Origin: a virus
Lineage: Duplodnaviria; Heunggongvirae; Uroviricota; Caudoviricetes
DNA length: 35,920 bases
IMG/VR virus record: IMGVR_UViG_2529293138_000008
Span: 1 to 35,920 of that record
Strand: one strand, 5' to 3'
Shown piece by piece: positions 209 to 35,085 of this stretch. Made by a program: the position numbers and the translations under genes. Below the pieces are notes generated by a model, which had not been told where the DNA came from, ran no database searches, and saw only the letters and a program-made list of their open reading frames with translations. Every line of letters starts with the position of its first letter. Positions within the stretch are counted from its first letter, which is position 1.

Positions 209-646
209 TTACTTAATAACAGTAACCACAGCCACAAGCACGGCCATCGCAGACAGGACAATACCTGTGAGTAACCAAGTCTGATTTGCAAATGATTTCT
301 GAAGTTCAGTACGATGCTCAGCCATCTCAACTTTCAGAGACTGGCGTAAATCAGCCATCTCAGACTTCAGGGATTGGCGAGATTCTGCCATCTCAAGCCT
401 CAACCCTTCGCGAATCTCCAGTACATCAGATTTGGTAGCAAAGGATTCGCTTCTTGTGGTGAGAGTAATCAGGTTGTTTTTGATTTCAGTCACATCACTT
501 TCCAGGCAACTGACCCGCCGTTCAAGGTCGTCATTCATGCCATCACCTCCATCATTACCACTTCCTGTTACTTGGTTGTTGGATACATTATAGGCATTCT
601 CTTTCTTTTTTCTGAACCGCGAAATATGTGCAACATTCTCTGCCAT
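209..646 (-). CDS. Hypothetical coiled-coil protein with C-terminal transmembrane anchor (cargo)
   Basis: ORF track 209..649. Start likely the ATG at 646 overlapping the upstream TGA stop (TGATG coupling); an alternative ATG at 538 has a strong GGAGGTGA SD. Four tandem 11-residue repeats ending in EMA/SFA, then hydrophobic tail LLTGIVLSAMAVLVAVVTVIK. Confidence 0.5.
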   Translation of the reverse strand: MAENVAHISRFRKKKENAYNVSNNQVTGSGNDGGDGMNDDLERRVSCLESDVTEIKNNLITLTTRSESFATKSDVLEIREGLRLEMAESRQSLKSEMADLRQSLKVEMAEHRTELQKSFANQTWLLTGIVLSAMAVLVAVVTVIK

Positions 647-1008
647 CACTTCTCATCACCCTGCTTGCCTACCCAGTTCATAAAGGCCCGGGCCGAGTAA
701 CGATGAACAAACCCACATCTGTTACAGGTAAGTCGGAATTCATAGTTATGGATATTTTCCCGATCATGTCCCTCATATCCCGGATACCCAGTAAATGGAC
801 CGATGTAATCAAGCATAACAAAAGTGCCTAAATCACACTCCTCAGCAGTTTTCGGCTCAGGCCCCACCTCAACAATATTCGTCAAATACATGTACATATC
901 CGTATCGCCACACGACAAACATTTTTCATTCGTAGACGACTCATTGAGAAAACGCGCAAAATTATCGAGCGTTGCCATTCTTTTAAGCTCATCTAAATGA
1001 AACTTCAC
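646..1008 (-). CDS. Hypothetical Cys-rich protein (CxxC ... CxxC), cargo downstream of int
   Basis: ORF track 646..1008. GTG start preceded by a perfect AGGAGGTG SD with 7-nt spacer. Two CxxCG motifs (CLSCG, CNRCG) suggest a zinc ribbon. Start abuts the int stop. Confidence 0.55.
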   Translation of the reverse strand: MKFHLDELKRMATLDNFARFLNESSTNEKCLSCGDTDMYMYLTNIVEVGPEPKTAEECDLGTFVMLDYIGPFTGYPGYEGHDRENIHNYEFRLTCNRCGFVHRYSARAFMNWVGKQGDEK

Positions 1009-1010
1009 TC

Positions 1011-1988
1011 TTAAGCACCTCCTAGTGGATTAAACCTCACCGCATCCTGCAGGTAATCCGGCGCAAGATGGGCATAAATCATCGTTGTCTGAATCTTTGC
1101 GTGCCCCAGAATTTTCTGGAGCGTGAGAATATTGCCACCGTTCATCATGAAATGACTGGCGAAGGTGTGACGCAGCGCATGAACAGCCTGGCCGTCAGGA
1201 ACATCAGGTGCGACCGTTTTGATGACATCGCGAACCAATGAATAATCCAGCGTCGGAAACACCAGTTTCCCGCCCCGTTTTTTGATCTTTTCAAACAGGC
1301 TTTCAGAAATAGGAACGGTACGGTTTTTGCTGTTCTTCGTTTTTGAAAAAGTGATTCGACAATGAAGAACACGGCGCTGCTCCAGTACCGCTACCTCGCC
1401 CCATCGCGCCCCGGTCGACAGAAGGATTTCGACAGCCAGCCGTTCATCGGGATTTTCAGCCAATGCATCCAGCAACTGAACACATTCAGACTTACTCAGA
1501 TATCCCATTTCGCGCTCGTTAACCTTCATTCCTTTAAGGCCTTGAACGGGGTTATCGTTAAGAAAATGGCCGGATGAGATGAGTGCGGTAAACATCGCGC
1601 TTAACGCCCCAATCTCTCGATTTATGGTGCTGGGCTGTATCCCCTGCTCTATCCTGGACACACGTAGCTCGGTGAGCATCGTTGTATTAAGTTTATGCAC
1701 GCACGGGTCATCCATTGCCTCACTCAAGCGCAGCAATTTAAGGCGCGTGTTATGCCCTGACTTCATTAGCTGGCCGTGGTATTTCCACCACAAGTCAATA
1801 AGCACTGACAGAGGACGGCGATCAATAGAGTTTCCTTTCCACTCATTGTTATGCTGTTGCGCCAGCACCCACCGCTCATATAAAACTGCATCCGATTTCG
1901 TTTTAAATTTTTTGCGAATGCGTTTGCCTTTACGCCCCTCAGGGCGCATGTCAAGAAGATACCCTCCCGGAATTGATTTTATGCTCAT
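1011..1988 (-). CDS. int: Tyrosine site-specific integrase (P2/186 family)
   Basis: ORF track 1011..2138; start trimmed to internal MSIKS (1988), which matches the P2/186 Int N-terminus and avoids overlap with the repressor. C-terminal HALRHTFASHFMMNGGNILTLQKILGH...IYAHLAPDYLQDAVRFNPL is the catalytic R-H-R-Y region, recalled as near-identical in pattern to 186/P2 Int. Confidence 0.9.
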   Translation of the reverse strand: MSIKSIPGGYLLDMRPEGRKGKRIRKKFKTKSDAVLYERWVLAQQHNNEWKGNSIDRRPLSVLIDLWWKYHGQLMKSGHNTRLKLLRLSEAMDDPCVHKLNTTMLTELRVSRIEQGIQPSTINREIGALSAMFTALISSGHFLNDNPVQGLKGMKVNEREMGYLSKSECVQLLDALAENPDERLAVEILLSTGARWGEVAVLEQRRVLHCRITFSKTKNSKNRTVPISESLFEKIKKRGGKLVFPTLDYSLVRDVIKTVAPDVPDGQAVHALRHTFASHFMMNGGNILTLQKILGHAKIQTTMIYAHLAPDYLQDAVRFNPLGGA

Positions 1989-2037
1989 TCGTGAAACCCC
2001 AGCGTTACAAGACCACCATGCCCCCAGCGCTCCATGA

Positions 2038-2349
2038 TTAGCCGGGCTGTGTACCAGTCTTGCGGGATTTTTGAGAAGACGATGTGTTTTCTGGCCCATC
2101 AGGGGAGAGAGAGGGACTGATCTGCCCAGCAGCCTCATTTGTTTTTCCCGTCATAAGCCATATAGTGTATTTTTCGAAATCCTTAGAATTAATTACGCGA
2201 TCAACAACGCTTAAACCAACCTCTCTTTTACCGCTCTCATAATTCTTTATAGTTCCGAGATTTATCCCAGTAACATCAGCAAACTCAGCTTGAGTTAACC
2301 CTTCACTTTTCCGTATCTCTTTCAGTTTTTTTTCGTACCCACTTGACAT
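2038..2349 (-). CDS. Immunity repressor, HTH (XRE-like), P2 C-type
   Basis: 103 aa. N-terminal LTQAEFADVTGINLGTIKNYESGKR is a classic helix-turn-helix. Position is immediately upstream of int, same strand, divergent from the early operon. Confidence 0.8.
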   Translation of the reverse strand: MSSGYEKKLKEIRKSEGLTQAEFADVTGINLGTIKNYESGKREVGLSVVDRVINSKDFEKYTIWLMTGKTNEAAGQISPSLSPDGPENTSSSQKSRKTGTQPG

Positions 2350-4339: not shown

Positions 4340-4729
4340 ATGATTGACGCTCATGACTTCACAAGATGGGTGCGCACACAGGACACCCGTCTGGCTCCCG
4401 TTCTCCAAGGATTATTTGATCTTTACATCCGTGGTCGTGACAACAGAGCACGCACTACAAAACCGGAGAATGTGGATACCCTTTATTTCACCGTAGACGA
4501 CTGCTACCGCGTGGACTTCACACCACACGGACTGGCGTTGCACTGCCTGACACCGCACGGCGAATCACTGCTGGCATATTACGACTCCCCGGCCTCCGTA
4601 TTTGCGGCAATGCTGGCGCATCGCACTGCTGGCGGGTGTGCCTCGCTGAGTGAATACACCGCTGAATTTAACCGCCTTTCCACCATCTTCTTGCAGGAGT
4701 GGCAGCGCGTGACGGGATACCAGCCATGA
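4340..4729 (+). CDS. Hypothetical early protein
   Basis: 129-aa ORF immediately upstream of the replication gene; its stop overlaps the A start (ATGA). Confidence 0.5.
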   Translation: MIDAHDFTRWVRTQDTRLAPVLQGLFDLYIRGRDNRARTTKPENVDTLYFTVDDCYRVDFTPHGLALHCLTPHGESLLAYYDSPASVFAAMLAHRTAGGCASLSEYTAEFNRLSTIFLQEWQRVTGYQP

Positions 4730-7566
4730 GTGAGTTTGCATGGAGCTGGAATGAACCACGACCAGCCATTGATCCGGCCAGATTTACGGAGCACAGGCAG
4801 GAAACTGAAACCGACCTGCAACGCGCCATCCGTTACTACCTTGAGGCAGACAAAAAGGCTCTGGAAGAACAGGAAGCGAAGGAGGAAGCCTTTTTCGCAC
4901 AATCCACCGTGGGTAAAAAACTCATGGCATCCCTTGAGGAAGCCGGACAGCGTGAAAAGCTGGCACAAAGCATCATCAGCAAGCGTCAGGCAACAGAACA
5001 AGACCCGGTGGCCCGTGCTTTTGCCACACTGAAGGTGCTTCCCGTTTATCTGCGTGAACCTCTGAGCCGCCACCTCTCTTTCCTGCGCAAAAAACAGGAA
5101 GCCGATCGCCAGAAAGGCAAAAAGAGCTGGCAGGCTGAACGCTACGCGCGCGGAACCCTGCGCAAAATATTCGAACGTCTGGACCGCACCGATCACCGCT
5201 GGCTGACACCGGGTTATCGCTCCCTTGCCGGACGCGAACGCCTGGACGATTTGCTTTACCTGCCGCAGCTCAACAAACACCAGATACAGACGCTGGCCAC
5301 CATGACGGCGGCGATGTTCAGCAGCACCTTCGAAAAACTCTGCGATGGCTTTGGCGCGACTGATGGCGAACTGACCATGGATGTAACGCTGAAGGCGTAT
5401 CAGATGCTGGCCCGCATGGCGTTACACCTGCACGCCATGCCTCCACATTATGACGCACTGACAACAGACAAAGACCGGAGGAACGAACCGGACACGGAGC
5501 TGCTGCCGGGCGCAATCCTTCGCCTGACCTGTGCGGAATGGTGGAAACGCAAACTGTGGCTGTTACGTTGCGAGTGGAGAGAAGAACAACTCCGCGCCGC
5601 CTGTCTGGTTTCCAGAAAAACATCACCCTATCTGAGCCAGGACGCGTTAAGCGAGTTTCGCGCACAGCGCGAGAAAACACGCGATTTCCTGAAAAGTTTC
5701 ATGCTGGAAAATGAAGACGGGTTCACGATTGATCTCGAGACAGTGTATTACGCGGGAGTAAGTAACCCGGTTCACCGTAAGGCAGAAATGATGGCCACCA
5801 TGAAGGGACTGGAACTTCTGGCCGAAGCCCGTGGCGACAGAGCGGTGTTTCTGACTGTCACCTGCCCGTCAAAATACCACGCAACAACGGAGAACGGTCA
5901 TCCGAACCCCAAATGGAACGGGGCCACCATGCGCGACTCCAGCGATTACCTGGTTAACACGTTTTTTGCGGCGGTCCGCAAGAAACTGAACCGCGACGGC
6001 CTGCGCTGGTATGGCATCCGCACGGTGGAGCCTCACCATGACGGCACCGTGCACTGGCATATGATGGTCTTTGCTCATCCGGAAGAAATCGACACCATTG
6101 TGTCCCACACCCGCGATATTGCCATTCAGGAAGATTGTCACGAGCTGGGCGATGATATTACTCCGCGCTTTAAGGCGGAGTATGTCGACGGCTCAAAAGG
6201 CACGCCAACCAGCTACATCGCCACCTACATCGGAAAAAACCTGGACAGCCGCGCCGTGGATGGCATCGACCCGAAAACAGGCAAACCACGCGTTGACCAC
6301 GAAACCGGAAAATCAATGGCGGAGAGCGTGGAGCGCGCCATCGGCTGGGCGCGCCTTCACCGGGTCCGCCAGTTCCAGTTCTTTGGCATCCCCTCCCGTC
6401 AGGTGTGGCGTGAACTGCGCCGCCTTGCCAGCCAGATGGCACGCAACCCGGAAGGCCCGCAACGGCTGAAGGACGACGCAATGGATGCGGTACTCGCTGC
6501 CGCTGATGCCGGGTGTTTTGCCTCCTACATTGAAAAACAGGGTGGCGTACTTGTTCCACGCAAGGACTACCTGATTCGCACCGCCTACGACCTCGCAGAT
6601 GAGCTGAACGATTACGGCGAACAGAGCGTACAGATTTACGGGATCTGGTCACCACTCATCGGGGAATCCTCCCGTGTGTGCACGCACCCGGATAACTGGA
6701 AGCTGGTAAGACGTAAACCGGAAGCGGAAGACAGCGCCCGCGAAAATGGTTTTGACCTTCAGGGCGGCCCTGCCGCCCCTTGGACTCGTGGCAATAACTG
6801 TCCCCGTGTACAGGAAACGGACAACAACGGGACAGAACAGCCGGAAGAACGGCCAGCACCGTGGCCGCAGCTCCCTGACGGCGTTGAAGTAAACGAATGG
6901 ATGCGCTCACTGAAACGGCACGAACGCCGGGCGCTGATGCGTTCGCTTCGTGACAAACAGGCAAAAAACAGCAGTGATGAAATGCAGAGCTGGACACAGA
7001 GCCGCAAACAGCAGCGGCCTTTGCCTGATAACCACGAGTTACTCGCTAAAGAATGGCGGGAGTCTGCCGAATCTCTCGGCCTGCATATCGGTGAACAGCA
7101 GATGCAGCACCTGTTACGGGGCGGCAGCCTGTACGTTGACGGCAGCATCATTGCACCGCAGGGATATGAAATTGTACGCAAACCGGATACCCGCCCGGAC
7201 AGCCGGATCACGCAGCTCTGGCAACGCCTGAGCCGTAATCACGGCGTAAGCAGCACGGAGATCCGCCATAACCCGGTCGCCAGCTATCTGGAACAACTAG
7301 GGGCATCAGCCCCTGAAGCCGCCGCACGCCTGGCATCCACACTTCAGCAGAACCAGAACACCATGAAAACACCCGTTACCGTACTTTCTGACATGCTGCG
7401 CGCTATCCGTGACGCAGAGCACGCACAGAGAATCAGTGAAACCACTGAACGCGCCCGCCGCAAAGCAGACCTGCTGCGGGGTGGCCTGACCAGTGGAAAC
7501 AAAAAACAGACAGAAACGGGATTCACAAATCCCGTAAATGAGCAAAAGACGCGCCGCGATATATGA
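4726..7566 (+). CDS. A: Rolling-circle replication initiation protein (P2 gpA-like)
   Basis: ORF track 4699..7566; ATG 4726 chosen for stop-start coupling. Contains a metal-binding HWHMMVFAH motif and an active-site tyrosine region YIATYIGK. Position after the early genes matches P2/186. Longer than P2 A as I recall it. Confidence 0.85.
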   Translation: MSEFAWSWNEPRPAIDPARFTEHRQETETDLQRAIRYYLEADKKALEEQEAKEEAFFAQSTVGKKLMASLEEAGQREKLAQSIISKRQATEQDPVARAFATLKVLPVYLREPLSRHLSFLRKKQEADRQKGKKSWQAERYARGTLRKIFERLDRTDHRWLTPGYRSLAGRERLDDLLYLPQLNKHQIQTLATMTAAMFSSTFEKLCDGFGATDGELTMDVTLKAYQMLARMALHLHAMPPHYDALTTDKDRRNEPDTELLPGAILRLTCAEWWKRKLWLLRCEWREEQLRAACLVSRKTSPYLSQDALSEFRAQREKTRDFLKSFMLENEDGFTIDLETVYYAGVSNPVHRKAEMMATMKGLELLAEARGDRAVFLTVTCPSKYHATTENGHPNPKWNGATMRDSSDYLVNTFFAAVRKKLNRDGLRWYGIRTVEPHHDGTVHWHMMVFAHPEEIDTIVSHTRDIAIQEDCHELGDDITPRFKAEYVDGSKGTPTSYIATYIGKNLDSRAVDGIDPKTGKPRVDHETGKSMAESVERAIGWARLHRVRQFQFFGIPSRQVWRELRRLASQMARNPEGPQRLKDDAMDAVLAAADAGCFASYIEKQGGVLVPRKDYLIRTAYDLADELNDYGEQSVQIYGIWSPLIGESSRVCTHPDNWKLVRRKPEAEDSARENGFDLQGGPAAPWTRGNNCPRVQETDNNGTEQPEERPAPWPQLPDGVEVNEWMRSLKRHERRALMRSLRDKQAKNSSDEMQSWTQSRKQQRPLPDNHELLAKEWRESAESLGLHIGEQQMQHLLRGGSLYVDGSIIAPQGYEIVRKPDTRPDSRITQLWQRLSRNHGVSSTEIRHNPVASYLEQLGASAPEAAARLASTLQQNQNTMKTPVTVLSDMLRAIRDAEHAQRISETTERARRKADLLRGGLTSGNKKQTETGFTNPVNEQKTRRDI
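7516..7535. repeat. 20-bp palindrome acgggatt-caca-aatcccgt (copy 1, inside 3' end of A)
   Basis: Read directly: 8-bp inverted arms with 4-bp spacer; conserved flanks aaacggg...cccgtaaa shared with copy 2. Confidence 0.6.
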
Positions 7567-7588
7567 AGCGCGCACAAAACAGGCAAAA

Positions 7589-7608
7589 ACGGGATTTCAG
7601 AATCCCGT
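7589..7608. repeat. 20-bp palindrome acgggatt-tcag-aatcccgt (copy 2, upstream of parM-like gene); candidate centromere or operator
   Basis: Same arms as copy 1, about 73 bp away centre to centre; lies in the 76-bp gap between A and the ParM-like gene. Confidence 0.6.
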
Positions 7609-7642
7609 AAACGATTAATTAATCAACACAAGGAAAATCGAC

Positions 7643-8602
7643 ATGAAAATTTGTATCGACGACGGCTCCACCAACATCAAGCTGGCATGGACTGAGAACG
7701 GCGAACGCCGCAACGCCATCAGCCCGAACAGCTTCAAGTCGGAATGGTCTGCGCCGTTCGGTGGCACGACGCCTGCAAACTACATGCTTGATGGCGTGCG
7801 CTATGGTTTTGATCCGGTCAGCGATCGCTTTGTCCAGACGACCGACACGCAATATCAGTACAGCGATGTGAATGTCATTGCCATACATCACGCACTGCTC
7901 AAATCAGGCATCACACCACAGGAAGTGGATGTGGTTGTCACCCTGCCACTGAGCGAGTATTTCGACACAAACGCCCAGCCGGATATGACCAACATCAACC
8001 GCAAAAAAGCGAACGTTATGCGACCGGTGGAATACCAGAACGGCGAAGCATTCACTATCCGTAATGTACGGGTTATGCCTGAATCCATTCCGGCTGGCTT
8101 TAAAGCACTGGCTGACATGAGTCCGTTTGAATCCCTGCTGATTGTGGATTTGGGCGGAACCACGCTGGATGTGGCAAAGGTTCAGGGACAACTGGCAGGT
8201 ATCAGCCAGGTGTTTTGCGATCCACACGTAGGCGTTTCACTGATGACCGATGCAGTGCTGTCGGTGATGGCCACCAACGGTATGCGTACCAGCCACCACA
8301 TCGCCAATACCATTATCGAACATCGCCACGATGAAACCTGGCTGCGCCAGCACATCCACAATGACGCGCATTACGCCAGCCTGATGGCGGTTATTAGTGA
8401 AAAGGAAGAAACACTGAAACAACGCGTGATCCGTGCGCTGGCGGGTTTTTCGGGTTACGGGCGGGTGATGGTTGTCGGTGGCGGGGCGGAGATTGTGGCA
8501 CCCGCTATCCGCGAAGCCTGCGGAGTTAATGCGACTTTCATCGCGGACGGGGTGCCACAGTTTGCTCTGGTTAATGGGCTGTACGCAATGGACAAGGAGT
8601 AA
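7643..8602 (+). CDS. parM: ParM/StbA-like actin-type segregation ATPase
   Basis: N-terminus MKICIDDGSTNIKLAW matches plasmid R1 ParM (MLVFIDDGSTNIKLQW, from memory). Further matches recalled: ISPNSFK, YSDVNVIAIHHALL, VMPESIPAG, DLGGTTLD, GGGAE. Length 319 aa, same as ParM. Confidence 0.8.
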   Translation: MKICIDDGSTNIKLAWTENGERRNAISPNSFKSEWSAPFGGTTPANYMLDGVRYGFDPVSDRFVQTTDTQYQYSDVNVIAIHHALLKSGITPQEVDVVVTLPLSEYFDTNAQPDMTNINRKKANVMRPVEYQNGEAFTIRNVRVMPESIPAGFKALADMSPFESLLIVDLGGTTLDVAKVQGQLAGISQVFCDPHVGVSLMTDAVLSVMATNGMRTSHHIANTIIEHRHDETWLRQHIHNDAHYASLMAVISEKEETLKQRVIRALAGFSGYGRVMVVGGGAEIVAPAIREACGVNATFIADGVPQFALVNGLYAMDKE

Positions 8603-8606
8603 ACCA

Positions 8607-8918
8607 ATGACGACACCAACCAGACGAATAAGTTTCTATCTGAAGCCCGCCGCCGTCAAGAACGAAGGCGAAGCATGCGCCTGGCTGGACAGCCTTACAC
8701 CAGAAGCCCGTAAAAACGGCCAACGCGTGGCTTTTCTGGCCGGGCTGGCGCTTCTGAAAATGAATCCGGCAGAGGCTTACCGACTGGCAGCATGGGCTGA
8801 CGATGAGGCGTTATCAGTGAGACAAACCAGGACAGAACGCCCCCTGTCACAGCCAGTACCAACCGCACAGATAACCAGTCAGATGGCCGGAAATATCAGG
8901 GCGTTATTTCCTGAATAA
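8607..8918 (+). CDS. ParR-like centromere-binding adaptor (putative)
   Basis: ORF track 8472..8918 trimmed to ATG 8607, which follows a ggag SD 4 bp after the parM stop. About 103 aa. ISFYLKP...LDSLTPEAR...AFLAGLALL...ALFPE parallels R1 ParR (IAFKLNP...DSIPQGERS...ALTAGLALY...SLFPKE, from memory). Confidence 0.5.
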   Translation: MTTPTRRISFYLKPAAVKNEGEACAWLDSLTPEARKNGQRVAFLAGLALLKMNPAEAYRLAAWADDEALSVRQTRTERPLSQPVPTAQITSQMAGNIRALFPE

Positions 8919-8981
8919 CACAACGTCAGGGCGAGTTCGCCCTGATCTCCATCTCAGAACATAAACAAGAAGAGCGACTTA

Positions 8982-9365
8982 ATGAGCAAAATCAACTATC
9001 AGGCATTACGTGAACGTTATTCACCTGCACCAGTACCAAAATGCCCTATTTGCGGCGAAGAAATGTCAATTCAGCGAATATCTGGATCACAGGTTGTTTA
9101 TGCCTGCTCCGGTTATGGTGATGATGGAGATTTCAAAATTGGTCGAACTCTTGCCGACGAACATTATGAAAAATCACGCGTAACAGTGTTGGATGTCGGG
9201 GATCCTGAAGTATTGGCGCTACTTGATTGGCTGGAAACCAAAGACAACCGAATCGCTGAACTGGAGAAAATCGCCACTGACTATGCACTTAAATTCCAGA
9301 AAGCACAGGACGCATTAAAGTACGCCGCTTTGCTGCATAGCAGGACAGCGCAGCTACAAGACTAA
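8982..9365 (+). CDS. Hypothetical protein with N-terminal zinc-ribbon-like motif (cargo)
   Basis: 127 aa; CPICG ... C...C near the N-terminus, C-terminal predicted helical. Occupies the P2 tin-like position. Confidence 0.5.
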   Translation: MSKINYQALRERYSPAPVPKCPICGEEMSIQRISGSQVVYACSGYGDDGDFKIGRTLADEHYEKSRVTVLDVGDPEVLALLDWLETKDNRIAELEKIATDYALKFQKAQDALKYAALLHSRTAQLQD

Positions 9366-9393
9366 CTTAAAGCGGAAGATTAATACATGGTGA

Positions 9394-9420
9394 GTCGGGA
9401 TAATTTGTTTTTATCCCGAC
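9394..9420. other. Hairpin between convergent cargo genes (possible terminator)
   Basis: gtcgggata-N9-tatcccgac stem-loop, read directly. No clean U-run on either strand, so terminator function is uncertain. Confidence 0.3.
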
Positions 9421-9455
9421 AAATAAACAAAAAAGTGGACTATCTCTGTAGTATC

Positions 9456-9986
9456 TTATTCAGCATCGTCTCGTGCAGTCTGTGCATACGTCACAACAAC
9501 GCCCAATGCATTAGTTTTCTTTTCAACATAGATAATATTGTCATATTCATAGTTACCATACGGATAGCAAATAAGAATATTTTTATGCAGATCGGGATCA
9601 TCAACAAACGCTCCGGAACAGCTTCTTGAACTACCGGATGTATACTCATACGGTGCAACATATGATGATGTTACTCCTGGTAAAAAATAAGTCACCATCA
9701 TAAGAGGGATAATCAGGAATATCCCTGTAAGAATGCAAGAGCCAGCATAAACCTTCAGGTATTCCGACAGTCCTTTCCAGCCACTTTGCTTCACTACCCC
9801 CCTCTTCACCAGAAACAAGGAGAAGAAAAAGGACATACCCATACTACACAAGATGTAATAATTGGATATACGCGAATTAAGATATGTAATCCTGTAGATA
9901 TCTGCCCTCCACCAGTAAAAGAGGAAAATAATCCCTAGCACTGAAACAGTCATGCAAATCAAATAAGGATATGAATCTTTCTTCAT
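9456..9986 (-). CDS. AT-rich integral membrane protein (about 3 TM helices plus C-terminal soluble domain), cargo
   Basis: 176 aa. Hydrophobic segments LICMTVSVLGIIFLFYWW, YILCSMGMSFFFSLFLV, AGSCILTGIFLIIPLMMVTYFL. Visibly lower GC than flanking phage core. Same position and orientation as P2 old (next to cos, minus strand). Confidence 0.55.
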   Translation of the reverse strand: MKKDSYPYLICMTVSVLGIIFLFYWWRADIYRITYLNSRISNYYILCSMGMSFFFSLFLVKRGVVKQSGWKGLSEYLKVYAGSCILTGIFLIIPLMMVTYFLPGVTSSYVAPYEYTSGSSRSCSGAFVDDPDLHKNILICYPYGNYEYDNIIYVEKKTNALGVVVTYAQTARDDAE

Positions 9987-10463
9987 GTCTTGCGCTCATT
10001 AAAATTTCCCTGCTACGAACAAATTTACCATCCGTTTTTTGCGCAGAAAACAGCACGATGCACACTGCACGATAGTGCACAAATTTGCACAATTTTTTTG
10101 AACGACTTTTTACCCTTCCGGCCCGCATGGCGGCTGGATCCGTCAAGGATCCGTGCGTGCACAAAAAAACGCGTTTTTCTGCGCGCAGGTGACGGGGGAA
10201 CAGCCCGCGTTTCAGGGGGTAAATAGCATTCCCTGAGCGATGTCGCAGCGACACAACAGAATGGCTGTATTTCTCACGCTGAGCGTGAAAAAGACGTAAG
10301 GGTTTTTGATTTGATGGGTTGAAAGGTAAGGCCGTCAAAATCGCACTGAGGCGGCGAGAACATACAGTCAACGCGGTGGGATTGCGTAAGAGCCTGACCG
10401 TCGATGGTGGCGATAAACTGGAAGGCGTCGTGAAATTATCTGACTGATACAGGAACTGGAGAG

Positions 10464-10488
10464 TCGGGGCATAAATTTTTTATGCCCC
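10464..10488. other. Hairpin just downstream of portal gene (possible terminator or cos-associated structure)
   Basis: cggggcataaa-ttt-tttatgccccg, read directly. Confidence 0.3.
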
Positions 10489-10515
10489 GGCGAAGCAGCA
10501 GGCAAGCGAAGCGCG

Positions 10516-11562
10516 TCAGGCTGTGGGCTGGGTGTCTAACAGTGCGTAAGGGTTAAAGCGGATCACCTCTTCGCCCAGCCAGTCATTGATGTGCTTCATG
10601 GCCTCCATGACGGGCATCAGCTCGTTAATTGCGTAAACCCGCGCGGCCTTCTCCACATCACCAAACGCACTTTTTTCACCCGGCATCGCCCCCATCAGTT
10701 GCGGCGGAACGCGGTGCGCAGCCAGCACATCATCACGGGATGCCGCCTTAACATTCATGAACTCATCCTTTGCGGTGATCTGCTGGAACGGCAAAATTTG
10801 CACCCCCTCTTTGCCCCCGTTGGGCGCATGAATGAGCACGTTTTTAAACGCACCACCACCACGTGCACCCTGTAGCGTTTCTTTCAGGGAGTCCATGCTT
10901 TCGCGGTTTACCTGCGCTGCACCGATGTAGATGATGCACCCGGCGTGGGATCCGTTGTCGTAATACAGTTTTCTGAACATGTCCGCCGAATGAGACAGGC
11001 TGGCCGAGAGTAATGCGCCGAGATATTCCGGCATGCCGTAGATTTCCTGGTTAATGTCAGGATTCATCAGGTGGCACACTTTGCCAGGGCGAAACTGAAA
11101 CGCGTCCTTACCATCCTGCACATACCACCATGATTCAAGATCGCTTCCGCGTCGCATGTATTTCGCCAGGGCGTGCCGTAATTTAAGCGGTTCGCCGAGC
11201 ATATTGCTTCGAAGCTCAAGGAATGCGTTACCGAACACAAACCAGTCCAGCGCCAGCGCCGAGAAATCCTGCCGGGAAAGCAGCGGGTGCGGAATATAGC
11301 AGCCGAGCAATACATTGCGCTTAAAGTAAAGCGCAGACTGATGCCAGGACGTTTGCCGGGCAGCTCTTGCCAGACCGTACCAGTCCACCGGGGTTTCATA
11401 CCATCGCCCGTTATCGGCACAGTACATATTGTCCAGTAAATCATGCCCGGTCAGGCGGTAAGGGCCGTCAAATGTGAATGCACTGAGCGATGATTCTTTC
11501 CTGAGCGCATCAGCGAGATCAATGCGTGAACTCATGCGCACTTTTTTATTTTTTCTGCTCAT
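10516..11562 (-). CDS. Q: Portal protein (P2 gpQ-like)
   Basis: 348 aa (P2 Q is about 344 aa). Divergent from the capsid operon and adjacent to the large terminase, as in P2. Confidence 0.9.
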   Translation of the reverse strand: MSRKNKKVRMSSRIDLADALRKESSLSAFTFDGPYRLTGHDLLDNMYCADNGRWYETPVDWYGLARAARQTSWHQSALYFKRNVLLGCYIPHPLLSRQDFSALALDWFVFGNAFLELRSNMLGEPLKLRHALAKYMRRGSDLESWWYVQDGKDAFQFRPGKVCHLMNPDINQEIYGMPEYLGALLSASLSHSADMFRKLYYDNGSHAGCIIYIGAAQVNRESMDSLKETLQGARGGGAFKNVLIHAPNGGKEGVQILPFQQITAKDEFMNVKAASRDDVLAAHRVPPQLMGAMPGEKSAFGDVEKAARVYAINELMPVMEAMKHINDWLGEEVIRFNPYALLDTQPTA

Positions 11563-13313
11563 CAGAACTCCATAACCGTGAAACGCTCGTTTTCTCCTTC
11601 GCCGCCAATCGGTTCGTTAATGACAGCAAGCATGGTTGCCCACGCAAGGTCGCCGTGGCTGATCCCCCTCGCGCGGTCCGTTTCGTAAGTGATAAAGCCG
11701 CCCGGTGTTTTCACCTTACGCACGGCGTTAAAGGCTGCGACCAGCTCCCGTTCGGCGCGATCGTATTCCCAGCGCCCGGCACGCATTATTTGCAGCATTT
11801 TCAGTACCAGCGACCGTTTTGATGACAGCGTGAAGGTGTACGGAATAGCAGCAGGGAAAAACCGTTTCACTATCTGATAAACAGCCTCCCCGTTCCCGCC
11901 CGTCACATCAATGCCGATGTGTTCCACGTTGTAGCGATACGTAAACTCTTCAATGACTCTGGCCTGTTCTTCAAACTCCAGCCCCTGAACGCGTCGCGTC
12001 TCCACCGTTCGAAAACGGCCACCAGGAACAGCCGGAGGAACCACCACGGACACTGCGCCGCTGTCGCCGTTTCCACTGCTGCCGTTTGCGTCATATCCAA
12101 TCCATACCGGACGATTCCCCATCGGGCGGGGAGCAAAAGGTTTCCAGTCTTTCCAGTCGTCGTATCCGTCAACACCGCAGCCAATCAGGATATTCAGGTT
12201 AAATGCCGATTCCCCTTCGCGGACAAACTCACACATATAGAGATTGAGGAACTCGTCTTCGGTGTTTTCATCACGAATTTCGTCGATATCGGTGTGTTTC
12301 CAGCCGTGATTAACCACATCTTCCAGCGTGACAATTTGCCGCCACGTCCTGTCAGGGCAGATAAGCCCGTTATGCAGCGTTTTCCAGTCAACAGAAAAAC
12401 GCTGGCGTTTATGCGCGGCCTTTTTCTCATTCCAGCGGTCGCCGTTCCAGTAGGCGTATGCCTCGTGCGTTTCGGTGGATGGCGTGGAGAAGTAGGTGCG
12501 CCGCAGTCCGCTGAGGGTTGCCATAGCGCCAGCCACCTTGCGCAGTTCAGCAAAGCGACTGACCCAGAAAAATTCATCAAAATAAAAATTGCCCGTATAG
12601 GACTGTGCCGACGCAGCAGAAGTGCCGAGAAAATGCAGCTCTGCGCCGTTGGAGAGGATGATTTTATCGCCCCCTTTCAGCTCCACATCAACTTCAGCCG
12701 CGGCCTTCTGAATAATGCTTTTAAACTGGAACGCCTGACGACGCGACGCAGACAAAAAAATCTGGTTACGCTGGTAAGGTTGCGCCACATCGTCACGCAG
12801 CGCCATCAGCAGAGCTTCCTGTGCAAAATACCAGGTCGCCCCAATCTGTCGGGATTTCAGGATCATCCTGTTACGTATCCCGACTTCCCTGCAAAGGGTC
12901 AGGGAGTCAAACCAGCCCCGCTGATGCCACTCCAGCCTGCTGATGATTTTTTCCCGCAGTGCGGCAATCTGTTCCGGCGTGAAATGATTTTTGAGTTTTT
13001 TCGCCCGGCCTTTCTTTCCTGCGGCCATCACATCCGGCTGGCCATCATGCAGCTTTTTAAGCTGCCGGGTCAGCAGGTCTATTTCCTTAAAGTCACCGCC
13101 TGTTTTATTCTGTTTTTCAGTAAGCTGGATAAGGCGCGCATCGATGGACTGCGTGACACGCTGCACGGGTGGCGTTTCATCCCACTGGTCGCGTTTTTTC
13201 CACGCATAAATCGTGTTCGGGTTTATTCCCATCAGACGTGATATTTCTGCGGGCGGATAACCCTGCCAGTAAAGTTGTCGCGCACGCTGGCGCACAAAAG
13301 CGTCCTGAATCAT
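11562..13313 (-). CDS. P: Terminase large (ATPase) subunit (P2 gpP-like)
   Basis: 583 aa; position and size match P2 gpP; stop overlaps the portal start. The 440-aa plus-strand ORF at 11919..13241 is a shadow ORF. Confidence 0.9.
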   Translation of the reverse strand: MIQDAFVRQRARQLYWQGYPPAEISRLMGINPNTIYAWKKRDQWDETPPVQRVTQSIDARLIQLTEKQNKTGGDFKEIDLLTRQLKKLHDGQPDVMAAGKKGRAKKLKNHFTPEQIAALREKIISRLEWHQRGWFDSLTLCREVGIRNRMILKSRQIGATWYFAQEALLMALRDDVAQPYQRNQIFLSASRRQAFQFKSIIQKAAAEVDVELKGGDKIILSNGAELHFLGTSAASAQSYTGNFYFDEFFWVSRFAELRKVAGAMATLSGLRRTYFSTPSTETHEAYAYWNGDRWNEKKAAHKRQRFSVDWKTLHNGLICPDRTWRQIVTLEDVVNHGWKHTDIDEIRDENTEDEFLNLYMCEFVREGESAFNLNILIGCGVDGYDDWKDWKPFAPRPMGNRPVWIGYDANGSSGNGDSGAVSVVVPPAVPGGRFRTVETRRVQGLEFEEQARVIEEFTYRYNVEHIGIDVTGGNGEAVYQIVKRFFPAAIPYTFTLSSKRSLVLKMLQIMRAGRWEYDRAERELVAAFNAVRKVKTPGGFITYETDRARGISHGDLAWATMLAVINEPIGGEGENERFTVMEF

Positions 13314-32090: not shown

Positions 32091-32247
32091 AGCTTCAGCC
32101 CCTTGTATCCGTTAAATGATTCGGCAACAATCATCACCCACCACGCGCGTAATCTCACCCCTGCGCCGTTCTCCCGCCACGGCGACAACAAAAAGCAGTA
32201 ACCCCCTCCGCACGCACATGCGACCATGCCGCACAGGGAGGGAACAG

Positions 32248-33357
32248 ATGACCGACACCACCATGCAATTGCTCAGTCAGGGCACAGACCCCGTAAAAAT
32301 GCCGGATTTTGATATTCTCGCGGAGGGTAAAACGCTGTCCGGCGTGGCAGAGCGCCTGATGAGCCTGTCGCTGACCGACAACCGGGGATTTGAGGCAGAC
32401 CAGCTCACCATCACGCTGGATGATGCGGATGGTCAGTTGCAGCTACCGCCACGGGGCGCGCGCCTGACGGTTCTCATTGGCTGGAAAGGCGAACCGCTGA
32501 CAGAAAAAGGGTCTTACATTGTTGATGAAATCGCACACGAAGGACCGCCGGACAGGCTGACTGTTTCAGCCAGAAGCGCAGATTTCCGGGATGAATTTAA
32601 CGTTAAACGTGAGGTGTCCTGGCATGATGTGACCGTTGAGCGTGTGGTATCCGCCATCGCTCATCGGTACGGTCTGAAACCGCAAATCAGCGAAATGCTG
32701 ATGGATATCGAAATCGACCACGCCGACCAGACCGAAGAAAGTGACATGTCCTTCCTTACGCGCATGGCGGAAATGCTGGGCGCAATCACTACGGTAAAAA
32801 GCGGTAATCTGTTATTCATCATGCCCGGTGGTGGCGTGAACGCACAGGGCCAGCCGTTGCCATCGTTCGCCATCACGCGCAGCAGCGGCGATCGCCATCA
32901 GTTCCGCATTGCTGACCGCGAGGCGTATACGGGGGTACGCGCTTACTGGCTTGATCTTAATTACGGGAAAAAGAAAAAAGTCAGCGTGAAACGCCGCAAA
33001 CCGCCAAAACCGAAAAAAGAGAAAAGCAGCAGCCGTGAAGGTGATTATATGGAAGGCGCGGAAGGCAATGTGTTTGTGTTACGCAAGACTTATCAGAACG
33101 AGCAGGCAGCAAGACGCGCAGCGGCGGCAAAGTGGCAACAACTACAACGCGGAGCCGCATCATTCTCCATCACGCTGGCACGTGGACGAGCAGAACTCTA
33201 CCCCGAAATGCATGGCACGGTAACAGGATTTAAAAGCGAGATTGATAATCAGGACTGGATTATTGCAAAAGCCGAGCACACCATTGATAACAGCGGCTTT
33301 ACCACGCAGCTTGAGCTTGAGGCAAAAATCCCGGAATGGATAGCAGAAACAGAGTGA
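32248..33357 (+). CDS. D: Tail protein D (P2 gpD-like)
   Basis: ORF track 32116..33357 trimmed to ATG 32248 after a gggaggg SD. LSGVAERLMSLSLTDNRGFEAD, ARSADFR, SWHD, lysine-rich linker and REGDYMEGAEGNVF align with recalled P2 gpD. Confidence 0.85.
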   Translation: MTDTTMQLLSQGTDPVKMPDFDILAEGKTLSGVAERLMSLSLTDNRGFEADQLTITLDDADGQLQLPPRGARLTVLIGWKGEPLTEKGSYIVDEIAHEGPPDRLTVSARSADFRDEFNVKREVSWHDVTVERVVSAIAHRYGLKPQISEMLMDIEIDHADQTEESDMSFLTRMAEMLGAITTVKSGNLLFIMPGGGVNAQGQPLPSFAITRSSGDRHQFRIADREAYTGVRAYWLDLNYGKKKKVSVKRRKPPKPKKEKSSSREGDYMEGAEGNVFVLRKTYQNEQAARRAAAAKWQQLQRGAASFSITLARGRAELYPEMHGTVTGFKSEIDNQDWIIAKAEHTIDNSGFTTQLELEAKIPEWIAETE

Positions 33358-33582: not shown

Positions 33583-35085
33583 ATGAACAAAAAGCTGTAT
33601 TTATTCCCAGACTCAAACATTTTTCTACAATGCAAGGACTTGACGCAGGTAAATTTTTCCGAGATTACTGCTTGTGATGAAGTATGTATCATTATTACAA
33701 GGCCCATTCAGCAAGAGATTGACCGCCAGAAAGGGCAAGGTAATTCCCGCCTATCCAAAAAAGCAAGGAAGGCTGCTAGCCTATTTAATCAAGTAGTTGA
33801 TTCAACTGACATGACTCTTGTTATTCGTGAACGCTCGCCGCGAGTTTTTCTTACCATGGATCTAAGCCTGAAACCATGTGAACAGTTATCTGAACAATTG
33901 GATTATCAGGAGGCCGACGATCGTTTTGTTGGTATTGCGGCAGGGTATTGCGCTGACGATCCAGATTCGGAGGTGGCAATCATTACCAATGATAGCGGTC
34001 CACGTTTTTCAGCAATAAAACATAATATAATCTGCTATAAAGTGCCTTCTTCATGGTTGCTTCCTGCTGAGCCAGATGAAAAGGATAAACAAATTAAATT
34101 GCTGGAAGCTAAGCTGAAGCAATTCACTCAGTCTATGCCCGATTTCAGCATTAAAGTAGCCGATGACGAGCAATTAAATATTGTACTTCCTTATTATACA
34201 GCTTTATCTGTATATGAAGTTGATAATTTGCTTTGTCAACTAACGGATGCATTCCCATTGGTTACAAACTTTGACAATGAACAAACTACCCCACAATCAC
34301 TAGAAAAAATCATCAAGTCATTTAGTCAACAGGAGTATTTCCCTGTATCAGCAGATGATATTTCTCTTTATAAAGAAAAACATTATCCACTTTGGAAAAA
34401 GCAGTGTGAAGAAATACTGAAAAACTGTCATACTCATATTAATCCGAAGGCAATAAAATACCCGCTGTCGTTTTTATTACAAAACACAGGTTATACTATC
34501 GCTGAACGTGCTGTGGTAACATTTACAGCAAAAGGAGATTTTCGTCTGTGTGGATTTAATTGGGAGATAATGGAAGAGCTGACTGAAAGCAAAAGGATTG
34601 ACCTACCTTCAGCCCCTACCGCCCCCAAAGGAAAATGGCGTAGTGTATGTGGCGTAACAGAAAGAATGCCTTACGCTTGGGGAGCTTTGGAAACACCGCT
34701 ATCCAGTATAATTTCAAAAGAAATTGGTCCTTTGTTATCTCTTACTCCAACAGAAAGGGATAAAAACGATTTTTATTATAAAGAAAAGAGAAATGAGCCA
34801 GTTCAAGTTGTATCGCTGGAATGCGAAGAGTGGCGTCATCAAGTCAAAGAAGAAATATTCCCGTTGTTCGTATATACAGCCAACAAACCAAAGAAAGTGA
34901 ATGGTGCAATTGAGGTGAGAGTTGATGCAAATAACCTTACCAATCCGGTCATTAAAACATTTAAATTAAAAATAACTATAGAAGAACATAGTGCATTTTC
35001 AACCATAACAGAAATGGTGCAGACATACATTCAAGAGCAGAAGAAAAGACAGAAAAGTTCTATTAGCGCACAAATCAAAACATGA
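33583..35085 (+). CDS. Stand-alone 500-aa protein with PIN-like N-terminal nuclease fold and uncharacterised C-terminal domain (cargo; candidate defence gene)
   Basis: AT-rich gene with its own sigma70-like promoter region (TTGATA ... TATATT around 33520-33560), gagg SD and downstream hairpin. N-terminal acidic residues in PIN-like spacing: LYLFPDSNIF (D), QQEID (E/D), QEADDRFVGIAAG (D), AIITNDSGP (D). C-terminal ~330 aa has no motif I recognise. Confidence 0.6.
   Translation: MNKKLYLFPDSNIFLQCKDLTQVNFSEITACDEVCIIITRPIQQEIDRQKGQGNSRLSKKARKAASLFNQVVDSTDMTLVIRERSPRVFLTMDLSLKPCEQLSEQLDYQEADDRFVGIAAGYCADDPDSEVAIITNDSGPRFSAIKHNIICYKVPSSWLLPAEPDEKDKQIKLLEAKLKQFTQSMPDFSIKVADDEQLNIVLPYYTALSVYEVDNLLCQLTDAFPLVTNFDNEQTTPQSLEKIIKSFSQQEYFPVSADDISLYKEKHYPLWKKQCEEILKNCHTHINPKAIKYPLSFLLQNTGYTIAERAVVTFTAKGDFRLCGFNWEIMEELTESKRIDLPSAPTAPKGKWRSVCGVTERMPYAWGALETPLSSIISKEIGPLLSLTPTERDKNDFYYKEKRNEPVQVVSLECEEWRHQVKEEIFPLFVYTANKPKKVNGAIEVRVDANNLTNPVIKTFKLKITIEEHSAFSTITEMVQTYIQEQKKRQKSSISAQIKT

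Follow-up and report, generated by a model that had tools for sequence, protein, structure and literature searches.

A ParM/ParR module behind the replication gene of a P88-like prophage, with a candidate role in the segregation of phage DNA

The stretch of DNA analysed here (the window; 35,920 nucleotides, positions 1 to 35,920 of IMG/VR record IMGVR_UViG_2529293138_000008) is an integrated P2-like prophage, a relative of phage P88 (Xuanwuvirus, Peduoviridae). Our analysis concerns a two-gene cassette on this prophage, parM and parR, located between the genes for the replication endonuclease gpA and the portal protein. Both genes are intact and translationally linked, purifying selection acts on them, and their sequences mark them as genuine homologues of ParM and ParR in the R1/StbAB family. 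We consider it somewhat probable (roughly 55%) that the cassette is a functional type II (actin-type) segregation module acting on free circular phage DNA and, at the same time, part of the backbone of one P2-like lineage (P88/Xuanwuvirus and relatives in other Enterobacterales) and not recent cargo. The module consists of the following features.

7500-7541, no strand assigned: candidate parC repeat 1, 42 nt, with palindrome 7516-7535 ACGGGATTCACAAATCCCGT, within the last codons of gpA
7573-7614, no strand assigned: candidate parC repeat 2, 42 nt, with palindrome 7589-7608 ACGGGATTTCAGAATCCCGT, in the intergenic leader between gpA and parM
7614-7642, plus strand: part of the leader with a conserved ATTAATCAA motif and the AAGGA ribosome-binding site of parM
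7643-8602, plus strand: parM, 319 aa, actin-fold segregation ATPase
8607-8918, plus strand: parR, 103 aa, predicted centromere-binding adaptor (PF10784)
8926-8945, no strand assigned: GC-rich hairpin directly after parR

The ParM and ParR proteins

The original prediction, made from the sequence alone, had taken the 319-aa protein for a relative of ParM/StbA, and proper alignment bears this out. In a phmmer search of all chains in the Protein Data Bank (PDB) the parM product matched R1 ParM (1mwk) with E=5.9e-94 and residues 2-316 of 319 aligned, and Pfam recognised both StbA_N (6.6e-82) and the ParM C-terminal domain (6.4e-69). Identity to plasmid ParMs is 47-53%, with 47% over the full length to R1/R100 ParM. 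When aligned with four plasmid ParMs (R1/R100-type IncF, IncI1, IncFIA/FIC and IncL/M) the phosphate-1 (DDGSTNIK), PES, phosphate-2 (DxGGTTLD) and GGGA motifs were invariant, and the protein carries the phosphate-1, connect, phosphate-2 and adenosine motifs of an R1-type ATPase. Pairwise ratios of non-synonymous to synonymous substitution rates (dN/dS) among seven close relatives were 0.01-0.17 for parM, which is under strong purifying selection, and 0.24-0.39 for parR.

The small open reading frame (ORF) that follows had been described as resembling ParR. The homology holds, while the start had to be moved: parR begins at the ATG at 8607, 4 nt past the parM stop codon and with GGAG ahead of it. 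The 148-aa TTG ORF at 8472-8918 was rejected as an over-extension that overlaps parM. The protein matched Pfam PF10784 (Plasmid_stab_B, the StbB/ParR family) with E=3.1e-24, and a profile built from phage and plasmid ParRs, including this 103-aa protein, reached the structure of pB171 ParR (2JD3) with E=2.6e-14; a search of PDB with the single ParR sequence gave no relevant match. Identity to plasmid ParRs is 17-29%.

Alignments reveal an N-terminal domain of ribbon-helix-helix type (residues ~1-63), a hypervariable linker (~64-95) and a conserved tail, NIRALFPE. The RRISFYLKP strand and the tail residues N96, I97, F101 and P102 are invariant among 23 ParR alleles, and this tail lines up with the last residues of plasmid ParRs (...KKNAMKLIN in R100 StbB, ...RNNIKNLFPDD in others). 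In the R1 system ParM is bound by the C-terminal peptide of ParR, and the conserved motif suggests that the tail might be the ParM-binding peptide here as well. An AlphaFold model of the monomer, of low confidence (mean predicted local distance difference test score 56) and too uncertain for a fold search, places helices at residues 20-61, disorder at 62-86 and a further helix at 87-100. ParR alleles are 52-93% identical beside a nearly invariant ParM (90-98%), and most of their differences lie in the linker, with the DNA-reading strand and the tail spared. The window carries the P88 type of allele. In the O157-type parR allele DNA similarity ends ~55 nt into the gene (window ~8661), and this break suggests recombination inside parR.

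Distribution and lineage of the module

The cassette had been called unexpected in a phage of this kind, which is not what databases and literature show. At 93-98% identity it occurs in 1308 of 5426 complete E. coli genomes (24%; best match 97.6%), in up to three copies per genome, and 1454 of the 1456 copies are chromosomal, the other 2 lying on plasmids. The DNA is 93-96% identical to the cultured Escherichia phage P88 and other members of its genus Xuanwuvirus (phiSM, 520873, P884B11), and the records of these phages annotate the two genes as 'plasmid segregation protein ParM' and 'partition protein'; RefSeq uses ParM, and PHROGs labels both proteins 'partition protein'. Pfeifer et al. (2021; PMC7969092) flagged P88 as a candidate phage-plasmid on account of its ParM module. 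The phiSM paper lists the parM gene merely as a 'fitness' factor (PMC6456863), and the P88 paper does not discuss the module. Experimental precedents for such systems on integrating elements also exist in AlpAC and srpMRC, to which we return below. The identity of the module is thus already annotated, widespread and in print with the same phage-plasmid hypothesis. What our analysis adds is a phage-specific ParM clade with conserved linkage to gpA, backbone composition together with purifying selection, a ParR domain pattern with many alleles, and a specific candidate for parC.

Several lines of evidence point to a lineage of its own. A tblastn search with ParM found matches in 16 of 50,697 phage records, 14 of which belong to the P88 group (93-98%) and 2 to the phage-plasmid D6 (48%). 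No plasmid ParM fell between 60 and 95% identity, and the matches at 95-99% were P88-like prophages in records labelled as plasmids. Intermediates of 54-63% identity were found in a large protein collection in Hafnia, Plesiomonas, Serratia and Enterobacter, and all four lie in P2-like prophages with the order gpA, zero to two small genes, parM, parR (PF10784) and, further on, portal and terminase. A scan of species-representative genomes gave just 3 near-identical loci. Chromosomal homologues at 49-51% occur in Dickeya, on an integrative and conjugative element (ICE), and in Mangrovibacter, on an integrated plasmid. In a neighbour-joining tree of 110 ParMs, computed without support values, all prophage ParMs fall into one clade separate from the plasmid clades, with hosts that are P2-like prophages of Escherichia, Salmonella, Hafnia, Plesiomonas, Serratia and Enterobacter. 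GC content at third codon positions is 0.628 in parM, 0.627 in gpA and 0.625 in the portal gene, compared with 0.35 in R100 parM.

The variable cargo slot of this region looks like the stretch at ~8950-10100 between parR and the portal gene, which has 37-46% GC, and not like parMR itself. In the window the ORFs at 9456-9986 (minus strand) and 8982-9365 (plus strand) of this stretch between them encode an Ead/Ea22-like zinc-ribbon protein and a 176-aa predicted membrane protein (phrog_1416, unknown function), while relatives carry HicAB, a KAP NTPase or other genes there.

Two further occurrences of the cassette were recorded. E. coli O157:H7 TW14359 has a degraded prophage in which an IS3 pseudogene and then tail-fibre assembly genes come after parR, so that the block from portal to tail is absent; gpA, parM and parR have stayed intact. 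A 226-kb contig from a Gram-positive record (NZ_JBQPOM010000071.1, 'Vagococcus sp. WN89Y') holds an E. coli-type cassette with 97% protein identity, probably through contamination or a mislabelled assembly.

Candidate centromere, proposed role and alternatives

Palindromes upstream of parM, to which the original prediction had also pointed, are present at 7516-7535 and 7589-7608. They belong to two 42-nt direct repeats that are 81% identical, lie 73 bp apart and straddle the gpA stop codon. Each repeat holds a 20-bp palindrome ACGGGATTnnnnAATCCCGT, and no other exact match to the dyad occurs in the whole window. We regard the paired dyad repeats as the candidate parC that ParR would bind. The Plesiomonas relative has two copies of GCGGGACAACAnnnAACCC, 72 bp apart, one at the gpA stop codon and one in the leader, with a stem of only 4 bp, a loop of 10 nt and no T-run. 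The Hafnia relative has a single CGGGTTCATTAAATCCC. Both share the ATTAATCAA motif, which in Hafnia lies immediately upstream of the ribosome-binding site. Serratia and Enterobacter have a different inverted repeat, GGGAAC..ATAGAAAAAT / ATTTTTCT.TTTC, and their ParRs begin with NRKISFYL, not TRRISFYL. ParRs of the TRR(I/V)SFYL type are found with GGG-N10-12-CCC dyads and those of the NRKISFYL type with another inverted repeat; these few examples hint that ParR type and site type may co-vary. Among the seven close relatives, 9 of 76 sites vary in the 76-nt leader versus 42 of 149 four-fold sites in parM (Fisher p=0.0067), and substitutions in palindrome 2 fall mainly in the 4-nt loop (TCAG/TAAA), the arms being kept.

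A scan for sigma-70 promoters between gpA and parM found no consensus site, though a weak promoter is possible with a scan this simple; it likewise revealed no autoregulated promoter embedded in parC of the R1 type. No plus-strand terminator was found in the 76-nt gap between the two genes. It is therefore probable that ParM and ParR are expressed as part of the early replication operon. The hairpin at 8926-8945 possibly marks the end of the operon; the terminator scan recognised it on the minus strand only, its plus-strand T-run being weak. A scan of positions 7000-10500 against Rfam gave no match at E<=1.

In the role that we propose, infection or induction would switch on parMR together with gpA as part of the early operon, at a time when the phage genome would be a free circle copied by gpA. 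ParR dimers would bind the paired dyads at the gpA/parM junction, and the conserved C-terminal tail of ParR would capture the ends of ParM filaments. Growth of the filaments between ParR-bound circles would then push phage genomes apart, such that replicating circles would spread through the cell and into both daughters before integration or packaging. P2 replication yields monomeric circles. Of the three roles that had been suggested for the cassette at the outset, we infer that active positioning of replicating phage DNA fits best. If the module does act on free circles, a tractable and common E. coli prophage would show of what use an actin-type segrosome is to an integrating virus. It might contribute to efficient replication, to inheritance ahead of integration or to avoiding abortive lysogeny, with the well-understood R1 ParM machinery available as a reference, and the two-site candidate centromere together with the shortened ParR could define a minimal ParR/parC complex. 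Current concepts are left unchanged, and the gene identities were already in public annotation.

Several observations weigh against the proposed role. P2-type replication gives many circles late in infection, for which partition seems needless. The candidate parC comprises two sites versus the ten 11-bp iterons of R1 parC, and P88 and O157 carry uncompensated changes in the palindrome arms. Read on the minus strand, both palindromes score as intrinsic terminators, each with a hairpin and a T-run. A helical segment of ~30 aa, which phage ParRs of other genera share with plasmid ParRs, is absent from the E. coli-type ParR. When parMR would be expressed is deduced from gene order alone, and the genes might have a weak promoter of their own. 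Literature searches found no functional study of, or experiment on, the P88-type module.

The terminator scores lead to a competing view of the cis-acting site, in which the palindromes are no centromere but minus-strand terminators shielding gene A from antisense transcription, or RNA hairpins of the early transcript. We hold this to be unlikely, though to be taken seriously, as the palindrome region also folds strongly as RNA (z=-5.5) and variation confined to the loop suits a hairpin as well as a protein site. Yet the Plesiomonas equivalents, with their short stems and missing T-runs, keep the 72-bp two-copy layout while being unable to terminate, the closest minus-strand gene ends at 9456, ~1.8 kb away, and one palindrome copy lies within coding sequence. 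That the whole module is no longer active, a remnant of a plasmid captured long ago that has travelled with gpA, is hardly credible. Some database ParMs are truncated (clusters of 188-261 aa) and the O157:H7 cassette sits in a degraded prophage, but selection on the genes is strongly purifying, all catalytic motifs and the ParR tail have been retained from genus to genus, and synteny persists at 54-63% protein identity.

The remaining alternatives accept a working module and assign it another purpose. Following the idea of Pfeifer et al. (2021) for P88, the element might be a facultative phage-plasmid, which instead of integrating could persist as a low-copy episome, in a carrier state or in plasmid lysogeny; a plasmid-prophage lifestyle had also been among the original suggestions. 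A complete ParMR alongside a rolling-circle initiator speaks for this published proposal (PMC7969092), as does one circular 34,461-bp record (NZ_CP148288.1, strain Z1323PEC0009), labelled a plasmid, that is a whole P88-like genome closed at attP, although this could be an excised or induced genome. A search with the unique end of this record matched other strains only. We consider the proposal improbable, given the chromosomal location of 1454 of 1456 copies, an intact int, repressor and cox, the integration of the window copy at btuC/ihfA and an autoregulated promoter not being found. Extrachromosomal maintenance was not seen, unless the one circular 34-kb record represents it. Two other apparent episomes were discarded: a Shigella 'plasmid' of 26.8 kb is linear and ridden with insertion sequences (IS), and in a 272-kb Salmonella IncHI2 'plasmid' ffh, trmD, pheA and tyrA adjoin the prophage, which shows that the record includes chromosomal DNA. 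The remaining plasmid-labelled matches are records of 0.2-1.4 Mb. The Salmonella IncHI2 record, pS2122_1 (NZ_CP110658.1), holds a P88-like prophage with parMR, sopE in the tail-fibre region and IS26 nearby, and represents either a chromosomal segment captured by a plasmid or a misassembly. Stable plasmid lysogeny is less likely than positioning of replicating DNA and is not supported as the usual state; a transient one is possible. A hidden second mode of inheritance, in which phage genomes that have been excised or have not integrated would be actively partitioned as episomes over several generations (in a carrier state or with integration delayed, e.g. while attB is occupied), appears a shade more doubtful than the phage-plasmid proposal. 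If true, it would make about a quarter of E. coli genomes carriers of a widespread facultative phage-plasmid on a rolling-circle P2 replicon. Finally, the module might be expressed from the prophage and serve lysogenic conversion or exclusion, by hindering incoming plasmids or related phages through partition incompatibility or as a defence gene in the known P2 variable hotspot. It does adjoin the variable AT-rich cargo slot between A and portal, ParR shows far more allelic diversity than ParM, and some genomes hold up to 3 copies. Against this, PADLOC matched neither ParM, ParR nor the neighbouring cargo, and backbone composition and gpA linkage across genera are unlike hotspot cargo. The ParR is only 17-29% identical to plasmid ParRs, the repeats do not resemble plasmid iterons, and ParR diversity spares the parts expected to contact DNA and ParM. 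We regard exclusion as decidedly improbable, and the original suggestion that it is directed against plasmids found no support.

The host prophage and comparison with known systems

The original prediction had left it to be checked whether the element is integrated or episomal. It is integrated between btuC and ihfA: the left end adjoins btuC and, in matching genomes, the right end adjoins ihfA. The main genes of the prophage outside the module are listed here.

1011-2138, minus strand: int
2038-2349, minus strand: repressor
4699-7566, plus strand: gpA replication endonuclease, 955 aa (PF05840, E=3e-130; 30% identity to P2 A)
10516-11562, minus strand: portal
11562-13313, minus strand: terminase
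32116-33357, plus strand: gpD
Right end: ogr and hok/gef

The P2-like character is evident from the early region in the order int-C-cox-...-A, the Q/P portal-terminase genes, capsid and tail genes of P2 type, and ogr. The cassette follows gpA on the same strand and precedes the portal gene, and this corresponds to the orf91/tin position, as had been noted from the sequence; P2 has orf91, then tin and old, at this place. P2 orf91 lies on the strand of A and follows it so closely that stop and start codon overlap, and tin and old lie on the opposite strand with their own promoter. Alignment of the annotated P2 nick-site sequence suggests that the nick region of the origin lies near 6763-6803, ~0.7 kb upstream of the repeats. 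The rolling-circle P2-type gpA is the only replication initiator seen, the rest of the window not having been searched for a theta replicon.

The gpA protein is longer than its P2 counterpart (955 versus 761 aa). Alignment to P2 A stops near residue 815, leaving a C-terminal extension of ~140 aa whose last codons overlap the first candidate parC repeat; in relatives the length of gpA is 785-907 aa. Between gpD and ogr, in what appears as an unusual cargo slot, a 500-aa PIN-domain protein is encoded at 33583-35085 on the plus strand (PF13638, E=4e-8), for which neither PADLOC nor PHROGs gave a match. The whole right-end stretch occurs at an identity of at least 99% in 59 E. coli genomes, O157:H7 strains included. 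At the other end, inside the prophage edge, the space from btuC to int holds two hypothetical ORFs (146 and 120 aa; 209-1008, minus strand) without Pfam match, and this arrangement of the btuC-int edge is common to 86 genomes over at least 80% of the stretch.

Among known systems, the module is closest in its proteins to parMRC (stbAB) of R1/R100. ParM is 47% identical with all motifs present, parR of the same Pfam family follows immediately downstream, the ParRs share the N-terminal strand and a tail of (K/R)xN(A/I)xxLF type, and in both systems repeats lie upstream of parM. The two differ in that the module here is carried by an integrating P2-like prophage after gpA, encodes a ParR of 103 aa compared with 117-147 aa that is without the middle helical segment, has two 20-bp palindromes in 42-nt repeats where R1 has ten 11-bp iterons flanking a promoter, shows no consensus promoter, and has its ParMs in a separate phage-specific clade. 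P88, phiSM, 520873 and P884B11 carry the module at the same position and 93-98% identical, with allelic differences only. The phage-plasmid D6 (P1-like) likewise bears an R1-family ParM/StbA, 48% identical; it is, however, a true plasmid prophage of 91 kb, and its ParM groups with plasmid types by level of identity and has no link to gpA.

For function, the closest parallels come from more distant systems. In prophage CGP3 of Corynebacterium glutamicum, AlpC, AlpA and alpS form an early-expressed system that links circular phage DNA to filaments; it is needed for full replication, and alp mutants have ~2-fold fewer copies (PMC4446434). CGP3 resembles the window in combining an actin-like ATPase, a DNA-binding adaptor and upstream repeats on an integrated prophage, whereas AlpC belongs to a distant actin-like family of an actinobacterial phage, its adaptor is unrelated and alpS consists of 24 short repeats. 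The srpMRC module of SXT/R391 ICEs is switched on only together with the functions for excision and replication, and it stabilises a test plasmid as well as the excised circle (PMC4489591). It is likewise a type II partition module on a normally chromosomal element, but of an ICE and not a phage, with a SrpM only distantly related to R1 ParM and a SrpR without recognisable ParR domain. By analogy, the role that we propose for the P88-type module would match those of AlpAC in CGP3 and of srpMRC in excised SXT/R391 ICEs.

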